DNA from: a virus | Taxonomy: Duplodnaviria; Caudoviricetes | Virus record (IMG/VR): IMGVR_UViG_3300031994_000089 | Location: 3,154 to 67,153 of that record | Length of the DNA: 64,000 bases | Direction: 5' to 3' (one strand) | Shown here: positions 36,533 to 64,000 of the stretch, piece by piece | Numbering within the stretch: the stretch's first letter is position 1 | Layout: each line of letters opens with the position of its first letter | The notes under the pieces: model-generated | The model's input: only the letters and a program-made list of their open reading frames with translations | What the model was told of the DNA's origin: nothing | Database searches by the model: none | Program-made: the position numbers and the translations under genes

Positions 36533-36935
36533 TTAACTAAATTGAATATTCTGTATTAGTTTTGTATCACTTAATACTTTGGTAAAAGCATATATACTTT
36601 GTATAGCGTCGCCTTCAGAAGCCTTAGAAGGTTTTCCACCAAAAGTAATAAAGTTTTGTTTTGATTTCATAAATTCTTCTAGTTCTTGATTTGCTTCTTC
36701 GGTATATACACCTTTAACGGTAATCTGATCACCATCGTAATCTCCACCCATACCTTTAAGATATAAATTAGAAAAATTCATCGTATCTATAAATTTATTT
36801 GATGTATCTATACCAATATCTTCTTCTCTGATCTTTGGATAATATTCATAATAAACATTATCTATTGTCATAGGTTCAGACTCTTTAGTACAACTTACAG
36901 TAACTTTTGTAACAATTTGATTTGTGAAAGAATCG
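36533..36935 (-). CDS. rpoC: virion RNAP beta' subunit, exon 2 (catalytic DYDGD)
   Basis: GGDYDGDQ; frame open upstream of the ORF-track start; splicing restores RFPIDSFTNQ. Confidence 0.88.
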
Positions 36936-37278
36936 CGTGCTGACTATATCATATCCCTTATTACTATTACCATAATAGAGGGATCTCCCTTTTTCGGATA
37001 TATATCCTACTCTACTCGTTTATTCATATATAAATTTCTTTATATATTATACTTTCGATAGTCGATGAACGTTTATTAATAATTATTAATAATTCGCTGC
37101 TGATTGTCTATTATTATAATACTTAGGCTTACTATCACCATATATCATCTCTCTACTTGTTTCTGACTTTCGTCTCCATATAGGCAAGAGAGCATTAAGA
37201 GTTTCCAGCAATTAAAGGAGTTATTCGATGACCATTTCTGGCCAAAGCCACCGATCTTGTTACATTGTAACAACGTTA
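36936..37278 (-). ncRNA. group I intron (343 nt, no ORF) in virion RNAP beta'
   Basis: P TAATTGCTGGAAA, Q AATCAGCAG, R GTTCATCGACTA, S TGATATAGTC; 5' exon ends in U, intron ends in G; IGS AGAUCG-GUGG pairs with both exons. Confidence 0.9.
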
Positions 37279-38660
37279 ATGGGAAATCTTGTAATTAGTA
37301 CATGCTTGCCTTTTATAGCTTCCATACAAGCAATAAAGAAAACATCGCACCAGGTTAAACGTCTTTGATAAATAGCTTCTGGGTTTTCTGTATTTGGAAT
37401 ATTTCCATATCTTCCTTTAAACATCATATAATATTTTTCTTTGGAATTTTTTACAGGAATTTCTATAGGTATAAATCTATCATTAAATCCGTGCAGAAAT
37501 CTTTCCATTTCTTTTATTATTCTATCATCAGAAAAATATATTTCTGGAGAATCTAATTCTAAATATTCTACTTGTCCTTTTTTATTTATAACAGGATATG
37601 TTTGTATACCATTAAATTCATTATCGAAAAATCTTCTAGTTTGATAAATTACAAAATCTCTAAATGCAGCAATACATGCAGACATTGGTATAGCAGAAGT
37701 TTCAAAATTAACTTTCATCCCTTCTGGTTTTTCTGTTTTTAATTCTGGTGCCGTGATTACTAATCTAGAAGCATAATTAGATGTCTTTGACATGTTAGCT
37801 CTTCTTAATATACCAAATTTACCTTGTATACCACGATTATTTATTTCTGATGAAGTAGATGAGGAGGCTCCGCAGAACCAATTATAAATATTCAATATAA
37901 TTTCTTGTACTCTACCATTCATTGCGTCAGTAGCATCAAACATGTAATCTTGTGTAGCTGTCAATGCATTAGATGCAACTATAAGATCATTATATAATTT
38001 ATTTATACCAGACAATCCAACTGTTCTAGATTGTGTTGTTGTATTCTTATCTCTATATAGTGGTGGTATTACTAAATATTTTCTTATAAAGATTTTATCT
38101 CTATTCTTTTCAAGATATTGTACATTGATATCTCTTTTTATAGAGGTATTCGTAGCAAATTTTAATTTAGATATATTCTTTCTGAGAAATTCTATACCTG
38201 TTTTACCAGCAGGATCAGAAATTAACTCTCCCTTTTCATTTATAGAAAAATTTTCTGTACCATGTACAATAGATCTAATATTTCTATCTATAGTACACCA
38301 AGATTTATAACATGATGGGTCCATAAACCATCCATGTAAATCTATGTAAGCAAATATACCGCCTCTTTCTTCTCGGGTTATTCCAAATATTGTATTTGAT
38401 AATAATCCATCATCTGATGGTATATTATTTTTTGCAAAAGCTCTAGGGTTTGTTATAGGTTGACAATTATTAACTTTAACAAATCTCTCCACATCCAATA
38501 TATCTAATCTAAGATGACGAGTTACTTTATCATATTGCTCTTCATTAAGAGACAATAATAATTCATTAGCTTCATTTAAAAAATCAGTAATATCTGAAGT
38601 ATTTCTAGATATTATAGATAATTCTTTTAATATTGAATCTGTACTAAAAATATCACTCAT
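37279..38660 (-). CDS. rpoC: virion RNAP beta' subunit, exon 1
   Basis: DDGLLSNTIFG..AYIDL, GKFGILRRANMSKTSNYASRLVI (beta' GKxGxxR..R.VI), TRFP; late promoter 38685-38698. Confidence 0.88.
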
Positions 38661-38684
38661 TATAATATTCTCCTTTCAAAGACT

Positions 38685-58956: not shown

Positions 58957-60363
58957 TTATTTTTTCTTTGCTTGTCTATCATCTGATATATCTTTATCTT
59001 CTTTATCAAAATACTTATCTCTATATTCTGATTTATTAAGATTGGATTCTGATATTCTATTATTATTTAAATTCTCTAGAGATATATCTAATTCGTTCAT
59101 ATAATCTCTATCATAATATACTGCAATATCTAATATATCTTCATCTTGTGGAGTATTAAAGTAAGCAACTTTATTTATCCAATCCATTCTAATTGGAACT
59201 CTTTTGGCTAAGTCCGCTTCTGTAAATACTTTAACATTAATAAAGTGACTTGGCGATACTCCATTTACTAGATCATGATTAATAGTCTTAGTTAATACAT
59301 TTTCTCCAGTAAATAACGAGGATAAATCCATTGTAGTCTCACCTTTATCTGTAGCATATTGAGTAATAGCTCCGATAGGCCATCCATTCTCATCGACTTT
59401 AGGTATATCTACCATATTAATACTATATATAGCTACAGTACCAGAAGATGCTTCTTTAGGTGTAATTTTTATAGTAAGATCTGATCCGGAATAATATGCA
59501 TAGAATTGTGGCACAGGTATAGTTAATACAGCATTCATTTCGATATGATAATACATATCAAGCTTACCATTTCTTTCACCATCATCTAATTGTAATTTGT
59601 CTTTTACAGCAATATGAGTATATAAACCATTCATTCTAATAAAGAATTCTGCTTTCTTATTTATTGCTCGTATCTTAAATAAAAATGGAACATCTGAATG
59701 ATTATTGAGATAATGAAGAAAATCCACAATATCTACAACTTCACCCTTCTTTATTTCAAACCCCGCTTTATCAGCAATATTAAGAATTATTTCTTTTGGT
59801 ACGTGGAAATCTGCACTAATATCTTCATATTGTGTAGCTCCTACTCTAAAATATAATTCCATCCTTTGAGATAAATCTAATTGTTCAGCTCTGGTATTTA
59901 CTCTAACTTTAAAACCAAAATCCATCCTCAAAGCTCTCATATTAAGACCTAAGAATAAATCTCTATCATAATCTCTAAAGAATGAATTATTTAAATTAGA
60001 TCTTCTAGTATACATTGTAACGGGAGCTTGATAATTATCTAATCCTTCTCTATCATAATCGTGTTCTATTCTAGGCTCTATTCTTGCTCTTGGTTGCTGT
60101 CCTTTTATGATTTGTCTTTTAAATTTATTTTTATAGTCATCTAATACATGTTTTCCATCTACATATATTCCACCAACAAAAAAATTCTTTTCAAATTTAC
60201 TTTCAAACCATTTATACATATAATCTATTGCTAGAGAATATGAATGTACATATGATGGTATAGCTAAATTTGTATATAATTTATCTGCTCTTTCGGAATT
60301 ATTATTAGATGCCCAAATTTCTTCTATATCATTTGGATTTATTGGGACTCTATCGTAACTCAC
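58957..60363 (-). CDS. conserved hypothetical, probable virion structural protein
   Basis: 468 aa, no enzyme motif; assignment by resemblance to jumbo phage structural genes is inference. Confidence 0.45.
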   Translation of the reverse strand: MSYDRVPINPNDIEEIWASNNNSERADKLYTNLAIPSYVHSYSLAIDYMYKWFESKFEKNFFVGGIYVDGKHVLDDYKNKFKRQIIKGQQPRARIEPRIEHDYDREGLDNYQAPVTMYTRRSNLNNSFFRDYDRDLFLGLNMRALRMDFGFKVRVNTRAEQLDLSQRMELYFRVGATQYEDISADFHVPKEIILNIADKAGFEIKKGEVVDIVDFLHYLNNHSDVPFLFKIRAINKKAEFFIRMNGLYTHIAVKDKLQLDDGERNGKLDMYYHIEMNAVLTIPVPQFYAYYSGSDLTIKITPKEASSGTVAIYSINMVDIPKVDENGWPIGAITQYATDKGETTMDLSSLFTGENVLTKTINHDLVNGVSPSHFINVKVFTEADLAKRVPIRMDWINKVAYFNTPQDEDILDIAVYYDRDYMNELDISLENLNNNRISESNLNKSEYRDKYFDKEDKDISDDRQAKKK

Positions 60364-61049
60364 TTTTTCACTCTCCTTTTTTTATTAAAATCAGATTCTA
60401 CAGATTCTCTAATAATATAATATTCTTCATCTGATAAAATAGAAGAATAGTCGTATAAATCTTTTAATATTTCTTTACTGAAGAATTTATCTTTTAATAT
60501 AAATTTCATATTCTTTTTGTCTAATACTCTTATATTATCAATGTTTTTTAAATTTCTAAGAACAAGATAAATAAATTTCTGATCATCTATATGCATAGCA
60601 CACCCATTATCAAATTTATTTATAAAATATTTAAGTTCATCAGTATAAGAAAATTTAATATTTTGATTCTTTGAATATGTTTGTCCAGCGGCTAGAGAAT
60701 CACACAACATTTCAACGGCATATTTATAAGGCATTCTAATTGGGGTGGTTCCTTGATCAAAATTATCCATCCAATATTCATAATGATGAGGATTTCTACC
60801 TTTATGGTGTTGCCATGCTAGTGAATAACCATTTTTTGCTTTACAATTGTCTATTGGAGATCTATCTCCACTATAATATTTAACACTTTCTGAAAATTCT
60901 ATATATGAAAATTTAGATAAGTCGTGAATAAAGGTTTGCCATCTTGACAAGCCTGCAATTCTACCATAATATGAAACCCACTGCTTATGATTACATATAG
61001 TTTTGAAATGTTTAAATGAAATTTTGAGAGTATCTTTGATGTTTTTCAT
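60360..61049 (-). CDS. HD-superfamily phosphohydrolase (DUF5662-like)
   Basis: HK..V, HDLSKF, AWQHHKGRNPHHYEYW, EMLCD; ATG 61049 preferred after AAAGG. Confidence 0.8.
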   Translation of the reverse strand: MKNIKDTLKISFKHFKTICNHKQWVSYYGRIAGLSRWQTFIHDLSKFSYIEFSESVKYYSGDRSPIDNCKAKNGYSLAWQHHKGRNPHHYEYWMDNFDQGTTPIRMPYKYAVEMLCDSLAAGQTYSKNQNIKFSYTDELKYFINKFDNGCAMHIDDQKFIYLVLRNLKNIDNIRVLDKKNMKFILKDKFFSKEILKDLYDYSSILSDEEYYIIRESVESDFNKKRRVKK

Positions 61050-61225
61050 ACATTTCGCCAACCTTTCTTTTAATAATATACTATATTTATATAGAAGTGA
61101 AGTTTGTATAGATAAATGTAAGTTTAAAAATATAATTATTAAATATACTAATAAAAAAGTAGAAAAATAACAAATAATCAACAAATTAATATAAGATTAT
61201 ATACTATATATAGGAGAATAAAGAT

Positions 61226-61441
61226 ATGTCATATGTAGATGATAATAAATTATTAGATTCATATAACGAAATTAATTCGTTAATTAAAACACAAACAGTA
61301 GATAAGGTAGTAATAGATTATACTAAATTAGATGGTGAAACTGAAAATCAGCTTAGACAAGCGATTTCAAAAGTTTTACATAAAAGATGTAACGAATTAT
61401 CTGCAGCATTGAATTCAACCAGAGAATTTGTTATCCATTAA
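61226..61441 (+). CDS. small hypothetical protein
   Basis: AGGAG RBS, early promoter TTATATACTATA 61197-61208. Confidence 0.65.
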   Translation: MSYVDDNKLLDSYNEINSLIKTQTVDKVVIDYTKLDGETENQLRQAISKVLHKRCNELSAALNSTREFVIH

Positions 61442-61460: not shown

Positions 61461-62462
61461 ATGCATAATAAATTGTTTGATGACATTATAGCAGAACAGA
61501 AAGAAGAACAAGAATATCGTGAGAAACACAATATTCCAATCAATCTTACTTATCCAAATTCTAATGAATATGATTATATGACTAAAATAGAAGTCATAGA
61601 TTTAGACTTAGAATGTAAGTTAGATATTGAATCTGGTCGTGGTTTTGAAATTACAAAACCTAAAGGATCAAATAAGAAAGAGATGAAAAATCCGGATGGT
61701 ATTTATTCATCTAAGTTTGGTCAGAAATTAGGAGATCAAAATCCATATGCAGATAGATATTCTTGCGAATGTGGTTATTTGAAGTCTCATATTAATCACG
61801 GAATAGAATGTCCAGTATGTAGAACAATATGTAGATTTGTAGATGATGATTTTAAGATGTTTGGATGGATAATCTTAAAAGATAAATATCATCTTATACA
61901 TCCAAAGTTTTATGATACTTTGGATTATATATTTGGAGCTTCTAAATATAATGAAGATCGAAAGAAAATCAAGGGTTCCAAATTAAAAAATATGCTACAT
62001 TATTCACCAGATGTAGATGAGCATGGTAATAATGATAGACCATGTTCTTTTAAACCAGATAAAGAACCATTTTATGGAATTGGTATGATGGAATTCTATG
62101 AAAGGTTTGATGAAATATTAGATTATTATATTAAATTATATCCAAAAAAGATTGAATATTATAATGAGATTCAACATTATAGAGATATTATATTTATCCA
62201 TTCTATTCCTGTATTTACAACACATCTTAGACCATCTGATATAAAGGATGGTTATATGTATTTTGAACCAACCAATGGTTATTATACAATAATAAATAAG
62301 AACGTTGCTTTAATCAATAAAGATCAAAGAAGAATGGATAATGATCCAAAAACTAAAAACTTGAAATTATATGATACTCAGATGAAGTTTAAGGAATTAA
62401 CCGATGAGATCTTGAATATCCTTTCTGGAAAGAAGGGAGTACTGCGTATGCTGGTGGGTGCT
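61461..62462 (+). CDS. rpoC: non-virion RNAP beta' subunit, exon 1
   Basis: Zn-binding CECG..CPVC, FGWIIL..HP, SGKKGVLRMLVG. Confidence 0.9.
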
Positions 62463-62760
62463 GTATATGTAACGGCTGCTTGAATTTATTCAAGTACTAT
62501 TCTTTCTAAAACTGGGAAGCCCTAAAGTTCGACAGGGTAATCAGTTACGAAGATCTGTTATAAACAGATTGTGTTCAACGACTAGTTGGTGACAACGTAG
62601 AGCCGAAATCACTGGTGAGGCGTTCTTAGACCCAATGTAAGTCCTCTTAAATCGAAACGAAAGACATCGAAAGATGTAAGATATAGTCTAGTATCCCATT
62701 ATAATGATGGGGAAGTTCATAAGAGAACTGTATGGTGTAGTGTACCATATGAATGCAACG
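62463..62760 (+). ncRNA. group I intron 1 (298 nt, no ORF)
   Basis: R GTTCAACGACTA 62573-62584, S AAGATATAGTC 62678-62688, terminal G 62760; P1 GCU|GU pairs with ACGGC; alternative 5' site 62459/62460 less favoured. Confidence 0.85.
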
Positions 62761-63030
62761 AGATATAATTATGCATGTAGAGCAGTTATAGCACAAGATC
62801 CAACTTTAAGAATTGATCAGGTTAAATTACCTTATACAGAATTAGTAATATGTCTTCAACAACAAATAGAAAACATATTAATGAGATCATATAATATATC
62901 TCCATCAGAAGCATATGACTGGTGGAAGAATGCCATTGCAACTTATGATGAAAGGATAGGAGAAATAATCAATATGATTATAAAGTCCCATCCTAATGGT
63001 GGTATACCCGTGATAATTAATAGAAATCCT
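62761..63030 (+). CDS. rpoC: non-virion RNAP beta' subunit, exon 2
   Basis: RYNYACRAVI (beta' RVDYSGRSVI) through VIINRNP. Confidence 0.9.
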
Positions 63031-63409
63031 TATATTAAAATAGTAGGGCTCCTTTTTAGGTGACTAAGAGGGAGAATTTGGTTTAATTGCTGGGAAAGGC
63101 TAAAGCTCTCTTGCCTATATGGAATCGAAAGATAGAAACAAGTAGAGAGATGATCTATGGTGAAATAAAAGCCTATATAAATAGTATATAGGTCCTAAGG
63201 ATTGGTATAATGTCTAATCAGCAGCGAAGCTCTTATTATATAAGAGAACGTTCAACGACTGTCCCTGAAATGGGAGTAGGATTCAAGTGAATTCCGAAAG
63301 AATCAAGGTCTAATTATTATTAGATTGAAGTATAGTCTCGTCTTCTAGGTAACACCTAGAGAAGTTCATCAGAGAACTGCATAGATTAACGACCTATGTG
63401 AAGATAACG
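63031..63409 (+). ncRNA. group I intron 2 (379 nt, no ORF)
   Basis: TAATTGCTGGGAAA, AATCAGCAG, GTTCAACGACT, GAAGTATAGTC, terminal G 63409. Confidence 0.9.
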
Positions 63410-63425
63410 ACAATAAATTACGGCT
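63410..63425 (+). CDS. rpoC: 16-nt micro-exon (exon 3) of nvRNAP beta'
   Basis: ACAATAAATTACGGCT encodes TINYG plus first base of Ser, restoring NRNPTINYGSILQ. Confidence 0.88.
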
Positions 63426-63773
63426 TAAGAAATTGGGTCAGCTAAATAGAAATGTTTAGTTAAAAATACTACGTTAATTGCTGGGACATGCTTAATTGCA
63501 CAATCAGCATCCAAGTCTCGTAAGAGAAAGGTTCACAGACTATCGAAAGTGTATTATAAGGGAAATACTTATAAGAGTAAATGAGTAGAGTAGAGCCAAG
63601 TGGTTAGTATTATAGTGATATTAGCTATAAGTAAAACTATTAAATCGAAACGCGTAGCACCTTCTATATGGTAATAGTATAGGTGGTGAAGATATAGTCG
63701 AGTATCCATATGTAATGTATGGGAAGTTCAAAGAGAGAACTGTTATAGAGTAACGATCTATAATGAATAAACG
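63426..63773 (+). ncRNA. group I intron 3 (348 nt, no ORF)
   Basis: TAATTGCTGGGAC, AATCAGCAT, GTTCACAGACTA, AAGATATAGTC; IGS AUUG-GGUC pairs with both exons; terminal G 63773. Confidence 0.9.
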
Positions 63774-64000
63774 CAATATTGCAGGTATATTGTATAGGAT
63801 TTACAAAAACACTTACTATGAGTATTTCATTACAAGTATTAAAACCATTGTGTGCAGATTTTGATGGCGATGTCCTTAATATTTTCCATATACTTAATAC
63901 AGAATTTCTGCATAGATGTGAAATTGTATTTAATCCTCGTAATGCAATGTATATTAGTAAGATAGATGGTAAATTTAATAAAGATGTAATGGTTCAAAGA
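63774..64000 (+). CDS. rpoC: non-virion RNAP beta' subunit, exon 4 (partial, catalytic ADFDGD; missing from ORF track)
   Basis: ILQVYCIG..LKPLCADFDGDVLNI..FNPRNAM, open to window end. Confidence 0.92.

Follow-up and report, generated by a model that had tools for sequence, protein, structure and literature searches.

Three predicted group I introns and a 16-nucleotide micro-exon in the active-site region of a jumbo-phage RNA polymerase β′ gene

The DNA analysed here (the window) is a stretch of 64,000 nucleotides (nt) from the IMG/VR virus record IMGVR_UViG_3300031994_000089; it covers bases 3154-67153 of the 67,153-base record, and its end is also the end of the record. This source record is a metagenome fragment with a CheckV completeness of 28%. 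The last part of the window carries, on the + strand, a gene predicted to encode the N-terminal β′ subunit of a non-virion RNA polymerase (nvRNAP), which is interrupted by three predicted group I introns. An ATG at 61461 starts a frame that stays open to 62462 (…GVLRMLVGA) and meets stops beyond that point. This exon 1 (61461-62462; 334 codons, ending in LVGA with T as its last base) is followed by intron 1 (62463-62760; 298 nt), exon 2 (62761-63030; 90 codons, RYNYACRAVI...VIINRNP, last base T), intron 2 (63031-63409; 379 nt with a long P5 extension), a micro-exon of 16 nt (63410-63425), intron 3 (63426-63773; 348 nt) and exon 4 (63774-64000), all on the + strand. The micro-exon, ACAATAAATTACGGCT, codes for Thr-Ile-Asn-Tyr-Gly and the first base of a Ser codon. 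Exon 4 reads …SILQVYCIGF…CADFDGDVLNIF…, carries the catalytic DFDGD motif and is truncated by the contig end. The stretch or part of it is found in 24 listed sequencing runs, many of which are labelled as sheep, goat or bovine gut metagenomes.

Within exon 1, tblastn matches phiR1-37 g274 and LPJP1 rpoC_2, and the exon is 87-91% identical to two relatives designated L007 and L008. Exon 2 is collinear with its homologues; its match to the Pfam family RNA_pol_Rpb1_2 is weak (E 2.9e-4) and lies under the curated cut-off. The spliced exons bring together the NRNP…ADFDGD motifs (NRxP...DFDGD) of the double-psi barrel. The gene of L007 is intact and extends about 43 codons past the point where exon 4 of the window stops; its protein matches, in this order, phiR1-37 g274 (E 5e-43), LPJP1 rpoC_2, Staphylococcus jumbo phages including MarsHill (annotated 'non-viral RNA polymerase beta-prime subunit') and AR9 gp269/270 (annotated 'non-virion RNAP subunit; beta' N-terminus'). 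An earlier reading of the bare DNA (the original prediction) had named the gene as nvRNAP β′, and the phiR1-37, LPJP1, MarsHill and AR9 matches together with the NRNP and ADFDGD motifs bear this out. On this homology, the assignment to the N-terminal nvRNAP β′ subunit of a putative AR9/phiR1-37-like jumbo phage of the ruminant gut holds. In this phage group nvRNAP β′ is an essential, single-copy function (PMC7598289).

The three inserts were compared with the Rfam covariance model RF00028 (Intron_gpI), for which the gathering score is 50 bits; the E-values given here come from a 1.7-kb search. All three align to the model over its full positions 1-253 on the + strand: intron 1 at 62453-62710 (46.6 bits, E 2.9e-10), intron 2 at 63018-63359 (39.6 bits, E 3.5e-8) and intron 3, the one that exceeds the gathering score, at 63417-63723 (52.9 bits, E 3.6e-12). 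The phage-type core elements AAUUGC.GGGAA, GUUCA.CGACUA and AAGAUAUAGUC are seen in these alignments. All three introns also have 36-106 nt inserted between P7 and P3′, the position of P7.1/P7.2 in subgroup IA; by this position and by blastn likeness to Staphylococcus, Brochothrix and AR9 phage introns they are candidate members of that subgroup (IA1 or IA2). Distant blastn matches are partial and lie in introns of Staphylococcus, Brochothrix, Listeria, Vibrio and Bacillus (including AR9) phages. We regard the inserts as free of open reading frames (ORF-less) because no stop-to-stop frame inside them is longer than 59 codons on either strand, and over the same frames no homing endonuclease ORF was found within the three introns. 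If any one of them were retained, translation would meet a stop 6 to 15 codons on. The original prediction had named three ORF-less group I introns, with a covariance-model search as the proposed check; the three full-length RF00028 matches and the short frames agree with that prediction. As a layout, the interruption of β′ by three group I introns, predicted from their structure to be catalytic, is confirmed.

Joining 61461-62462, 62761-63030, 63410-63425 and 63774-64000 gives 505 codons free of stops. The spliced product aligns without gaps across every junction with the uninterrupted phiR1-37 g274 and Listeria phage LPJP1 rpoC_2; with a slash marking each splice site, LVGA/RYNYACRAVI is aligned opposite LIGNRFNFSSRMVI and IINRNP/TINYG/SILQ opposite IINRNPSINIGSVM. 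The gene is a single open frame in L007 and L009, IMG/VR relatives at 90% and 70% protein identity, and their DNA reads GCA/AGATAT and AATCCT/ACCATTAACTACGGAT/CTATAC at the three junctions. Because this uninterrupted DNA spans all three sites, the junctions are fixed to the single base, and those originally predicted (62462/62761, 63030/63410 and 63425/63774) are exact. The relative L035 has GGCTCAATATTGCAGGTA uninterrupted, which is identical to the join of micro-exon and exon 4 in the window. The base before each intron is T (62462, 63030 and 63425), and each intron closes with AACG, its final G lying at 62760, 63409 and 63773. Junctions moved by one base at sites 1 and 2 would keep the frame but violate this exon-U/intron-G rule, and they were rejected.

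The residues encoded by the micro-exon, TINYG(S), are invariant in the intron-less genes of L007, L009 and L035 despite synonymous changes in their DNA. As foreseen in the original prediction, these three relatives do not lack TINYGS, and the intron-less phiR1-37 and LPJP1 genes align across it without a gap. The prediction that skipping of the micro-exon would shift the frame is also borne out, the shifted frame reaching a stop after 7 codons. Three other descriptions of the locus were considered and rejected. A twintron does not fit, because introns 2 and 3 are separated by 16 coding nt and the TINYG that these specify is present in every intron-less allele; an intein is at odds with inserts that carry stops in all frames; and in a split gene the 16-nt exon could not be expressed by itself.

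Each intron can be folded with a P1 of its own (9, 6 and 7 base pairs (bp) for introns 1, 2 and 3), in which the U at position −1 of the upstream exon pairs with a guide G. In intron 1, GGGUGCU/GU pairs with ACGGC.UGCU (62472-62481; U62462.G62474), in intron 2 CCU/UAU pairs with GUAGGG (63043-63048; U63030.G63046), and in intron 3 GGCU/UAA, closed by a GAAA loop, pairs with UUGGGUC (63433-63439; U63425.G63436). The P1 of intron 2 is kept in a second copy of the locus, the metagenome contig OCTX011742149.1 (L015), despite a change from UAU to UGC on its 5′ strand opposite GUA, by which A-U becomes G.U and U.G becomes C-G. A clear, canonical P10 beside P1 is seen for intron 3 alone, between CAAU of exon 4 (63774-63777) and AUUG (63432-63435), of which only 2 bp are left in L015. 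The micro-exon had been predicted to serve two introns. Its role as P1 partner of intron 3 stands, as its last four bases, GGCU, form the exon strand of that stem and pair with the internal guide GGGUC. The role as P10 partner of intron 2 is not supported, as no complementarity to the first bases of the micro-exon was found in the window or in L015.

The three introns share a 3′-terminal block, GAAGTTCA-N-GAGAACTG (GAAGUUCA-N-GAGAACUG as RNA), which is followed by a variable hairpin and the terminal ..AACG; the hairpin stems differ (AUGGU with ACCAU, AUAG with CUAU, and UAUAGA with UCUAUA). In a six-intron alignment the block occupies 62712-62760, 63361-63409 and 63723-63773, all on the + strand. 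It recurs in introns a and b of L008, in one AR9 intron and in the β′ intron of the Vibrio phage vB_pir03, whose 3′ end shares 88% identity with the block of intron 2. The proposal that all three introns end in a related block (called P9 in the original prediction) is supported by the alignment. Over their length the window introns are mutually 52-56% identical, with introns 2 and 3 at 52%, and intron 2 is 73% identical to intron c of L008, located at another site (DFD/GD).

A protein-based scan of metagenome contigs retrieved 25 relatives. L015, the exons of which are about 86% identical to those of the window at the nucleotide level, reads AACCCT/intron (410 nt)/ACAATAAATTATGGCT/intron (347 nt)/CAATATTACAG and thus has the same module of intron, 16-nt exon and intron. 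Compared with introns 2 and 3, its two introns show 85% and 93% identity, respectively; intron 1 is missing. Pattern scans of viral and metagenome contigs for the micro-exon with its intron flanks, in which intron 3 was required to start with TAAGAAATTGG, gave no match; L015 was missed because its intron 3 starts with TAGTAAAATGG. Similarly, an Rfam scan of 11 pooled loci left the introns of L015, L023, L033 and L035 unreported, which we attribute to a filter or threshold effect because the L015 introns align so well to introns 2 and 3. Orthologues at the same sites are present in L008 (86% identical) and L036 for intron 1, and in L015 and L036 for intron 2.

We also compared the stretch with Logan contigs from four public runs. 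Runs X3 and X4 contain DNA alleles that join 62455 to 62761 with 7 replacing letters, so that exactly the 298 nt of intron 1 are absent; the 7 nt beside site 1 differ synonymously only, and one of the X3 contigs without intron 1 shows just 0 and 2 further differences over 337 and 354 nt. Alleles without intron 3 are found in runs X3 and X5. A contig of X4 spans 63410-64000 unbroken, including the micro-exon and intron 3, and has a different intron ahead of them. In X22, a sheep-gut metatranscriptome, a 160-nt contig (63614-63773) lies entirely in intron 3, matches it without mismatch and ends at 63773. This contig could be excised intron RNA or the result of a break in the assembly graph; we gave it no weight because assembly graphs break at intron boundaries in mixed strains too.

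To map the insertion sites in 27 related contigs, tblastn was combined with the U/G rule and Rfam; the sites are given as residue/phase of L007. At least 11 sites fall within about 130 codons, most of them with Rfam matches. Site 334/0, that of intron 1, is occupied in the window, L008, L025 (site approximate), L026 and L036; site 424/0, that of intron 2, in the window, L015, L027 and L036; and site 429/1, that of intron 3, in the window, L012, L015, L023, L028 and L033. The others are 335/1, 351/2, 427/1 (less certain) and 458/0 in L021, 341/1 in L026, 425/2 in L008, 460/0 in L008 and L035, and 461/0 in L027. Short exons arise at other pairs of sites as well: L026 has a 22-nt exon, AGATACAACTTTTCTAGCAGGT (RYNFSSR plus 1 nt; L026:1694-1715), between group I introns at 334/0 and 341/1, and L021 has a 49-nt exon (L021:2368-2416, approximate) between group I introns at 335/1 and 351/2. 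The third base of codon 334 (window 62460-62462), which is position −1 of site 1, is T whenever the intron is present (four distinct alleles: window, L008/L013, L026 and L036), and A or G in 11 of the 11 distinct intron-less alleles listed, a pattern that fits the U.G requirement.

Some of the relatives carry long introns with ORFs of 258-268 amino acids (aa). At 429/1, the site of intron 3, L023 has an intron of 1425 nt that encodes a NUMOD4 protein (ORF L023:4081-4878) and the 3′ half of which is 75% identical to intron 3. The 1352-nt intron of L021 at 427/1 encodes an HNH_3/NUMOD4 protein (ORF L021:3191-3994), and the long intron of L033 at 429/1 has an ORF (L033:1154-1927) with no Pfam match. 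The products of L023 and L021 were marked as homing endonucleases because of their NUMOD4 and/or HNH_3 motifs. Such endonuclease-bearing relatives suggest homing, with the ORF-less copies perhaps mobilised in trans or by recombination.

Related introns were seen outside the gene as well. A fourth group I intron lies at 36936-37278 on the − strand of the window (RF00028, 33.9 bits, E 1.6e-8), flanked by ORFs at 37260-38675 (−) and 36533-36943 (−). It splits a second β′-like gene (…LITRFPI/DSFTNQIVTK…GGDYDGDQ), presumably that of the virion RNA polymerase, 2 nt off the position homologous to that of intron 2, and has a P1 of CCAU/ with GUGG. This intron ends 8 nt past the 3′ strand of P7, and the shared 3′ block is absent from it. 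Its bases 37216-37135 share 87% identity with 63082-63163 of intron 2, and its bases 37074-37007 share 79% with 63527-63593 of intron 3; from these identities it looks like a mosaic. In the cultured jumbo phage vB_pir03 (L001; MT811961, 80416-83265), β′ is annotated as separate coding sequences, interspersed with small 'hypothetical proteins'. Directly before FDGD lies a group I intron (54.7 bits) with a 3′ end that matches that of intron 2 at 88% identity over 82 nt; the gene was probably mis-annotated for want of splicing. Upstream of the β′ operon of the window, the divergent neighbour at 60363-61196 (−) encodes a DUF5662 protein (E 5.7e-30), and a 75-aa ORF immediately upstream of the β′ gene (61214-61438) has no Pfam match.

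The layout described here is of a kind already known, and the window is a further case of it; the original prediction overstated matters in calling the micro-exon unusual, given the exons of 11 nt in AR9/PBS1 and 23 nt in Twort and those of 22 and 49 nt in relatives of the same gene. The AR9/PBS1 gene for the N-terminal part of the virion RNA polymerase β subunit (NC_031039, BI022_gp188) is a coding sequence joined from 6 pieces, with five group I introns scoring 50-102 bits. Introns 2 and 3 of that gene flank an 11-nt exon, AAAGTTGGGGT (L011:4284-4294; NC_031039, about 152162-152172), which was derived in the present analysis and not taken from a publication. AR9 intron 2 ends in …GAAGATAATG at L011:4283, and the P1 of AR9 intron 3 is GGGGU/GAAUUAAACUGCCCC. 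The spliced reading …MSTPDSD/KVGV/RQLTFDPAF… matches the intron-less genes of Staphylococcus jumbo phages and LPJP1 unbroken over all 41 residues. The AR9 case thus resembles the present one in phage group, in the split multisubunit RNA polymerase gene, in a micro-exon inside a conserved active-site motif (TPDSD/KVGV/RQL, which we take to resemble the bacterial ETPEGPNIGLI) and in an upstream intron that ends with the same GCAGTTCA..GAGAAC..hairpin..AATG block. It differs in that the subunit is virion β and the motif another one, and in that an HNH/AP2 homing endonuclease is encoded within the downstream AR9 intron, against two ORF-less introns in the window. In AR9, the orthologue of the β′ gene described here (gp269/270) is interrupted by one intron, located 3′ of DFDGD and encoding an HNH/NUMOD4-type endonuclease.

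A second precedent is orf142 of phage Twort, the introns and exon skipping of which were reportedly described by Landthaler and Shub in 1999. According to two later papers (PMC10136302, PMC3073962), this tail tube protein gene contains three group I introns, with a 23-nt exon between two IA2 introns, and undergoes exon skipping. As in the window, three ORF-less introns (of IA type in Twort, putatively so here) reside in one phage gene and two of them lie beside a very short exon. Introns 2 and 3 of Twort, however, closely resemble each other and have been proposed to form a joint ribozyme, whereas the window pair, far from being two highly similar introns around a short exon, is 52% identical and has different guides. 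Skipping is documented in Twort and hypothetical in the window, and the gene here encodes a polymerase instead of a tail tube protein. PMC10136302 further covers engineered Tetrahymena tandems, in which a 24-nt exon is skipped, and tandem group I introns around a 34-nt exon in the 23S rRNA of Coxiella burnetii. The latter are likewise two unrelated introns beside a short exon at a highly conserved functional site, but in a bacterial rRNA gene, with a longer exon and with introns of subgroups IB2 and IA3. Exon skipping has also been reported for a Bastillevirinae polymerase gene (PMC11878797). PhiPA3 gp210 is a jumbo-phage RNA polymerase subunit gene with a group I intron (PMC11620839); it has one intron, the homing endonuclease of which acts in phage-phage competition, while the three introns of the window encode nothing.

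Altogether, we consider it very probable that the β′ N-terminal gene was independently colonised by three different ORF-less group I introns, putatively of the phage IA type, and that the micro-exon is a by-product of this process. The introns would have entered behind LVGA, behind NRNP and within the Ser codon following TINYG; introns 2 and 3 would have taken neighbouring sites in the conserved NRNPTINYGS motif, and the 16-nt exon would be what was left over between them. Each intron would use its own P1, with the internal guides GGC.UGCU, GUAGGG and UUGGGUC, and excise itself in the two-step guanosine-initiated reaction to give the catalytic subunit. The micro-exon would then contribute only the 4-nt strand for the P1 of intron 3 and the context of the 3′ splice site of intron 2, and since these two contributions fall on separate parts of the 16 nt, either order of splicing appears feasible. 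Spread may have occurred by homing or recombination, helped in trans by the HNH/NUMOD4 endonucleases of relatives.

Several observations weigh against this view. Introns 1 and 2 score under the RF00028 gathering threshold. For introns 1 and 2, the first bases of the 3′ exon were compared with those lying 5′ of the guide G, and no canonical P10 was found; the offset A/U matches of 4 bp that appeared were not counted. In X22, the sole metatranscriptome among the 24 runs to contain parts of the stretch, there are only contigs inside the introns and one in exon 1, and no spliced contig was found. The loci bearing T at position −1 of site 334 are related, so the association does not amount to independent events. 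The β′ gene is cut by the contig end, which leaves room for more introns downstream.

The sub-threshold scores of two of the three introns and the lack of spliced RNA among the X22 contigs, together with the origin of the record as a metagenome fragment only 28% complete, would also be expected of a pseudogene copy in which the inserts are an assembly chimera or decayed remnants that no longer splice. We think this very improbable: the alignments cover all 253 model positions, and the P3-P8 core, GACUA and AAGAUAUAGUC, P1 and the terminal G are intact. The module occurs in the independent assembly L015, and run X4, from another study, holds the micro-exon and intron 3. The exon codons, including those of the micro-exon, differ from the relatives just synonymously, and nvRNAP β′ is essential and single-copy in the phage group.

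Alternatively, the tandem introns could act as a regulatory gate, with ordered or inefficient splicing, as the original prediction suggested, or programmed skipping of the micro-exon, as in Twort orf142, determining the amount of functional nvRNAP β′ and so timing late transcription. All three introns need to be removed, so splicing yields would multiply, and skipping ends in the early stop described above. Cross-use of splice sites would be permitted by the near-identical 3′ block ending in AACG in all three introns, and also by the guide UGGGUC of intron 3, which could pair with the terminal CCU of exon 2. Skipping is documented in PMC10136302 for exons of 23 nt in Twort and 24 nt in engineered Tetrahymena constructs, and the module is conserved in L015. 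Even so, such a gate seems unlikely, given that L007 and L009 do without these introns and L008, L012, L035 and L036 have other combinations, which argues that the arrangement is dispensable, and that introns 2 and 3 lack the high similarity of the Twort pair. A narrower proposal makes the module of intron 2, 16-nt exon and intron 3 a functional unit, in which the shared 3′ blocks and partly cross-compatible guides let the two ribozymes compete or cooperate and tunable skipping yields a truncated, inactive β′, so that the late polymerase would be controlled in its level or its timing. It builds on the presence of the module in two lineages, with introns (85% and 93% identity) kept as well as or better than the exons (about 86%), and we judge it improbable. 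The micro-exon is most likely a by-product of the dense colonisation of an active-site hot spot and not a regulatory device.

This locus leaves the current understanding of intron biology unchanged and is a clear, well-supported case of how crowded with group I introns the active-site codons can become in a phage enzyme that is essential. It bears on annotation, in that gene callers will overlook the micro-exon and report a broken β′ gene, as with the vB_pir03 gene in pieces. Together with its relatives it forms a natural series, with at least 11 sites spread over about 130 codons, short exons (16, 22 and 49 nt, and 11 nt in AR9), and alleles with and without each intron. This series can be used to study the choice of homing sites, the minimum length of an exon between neighbouring ribozymes and the cross-talk of tandem ribozymes.

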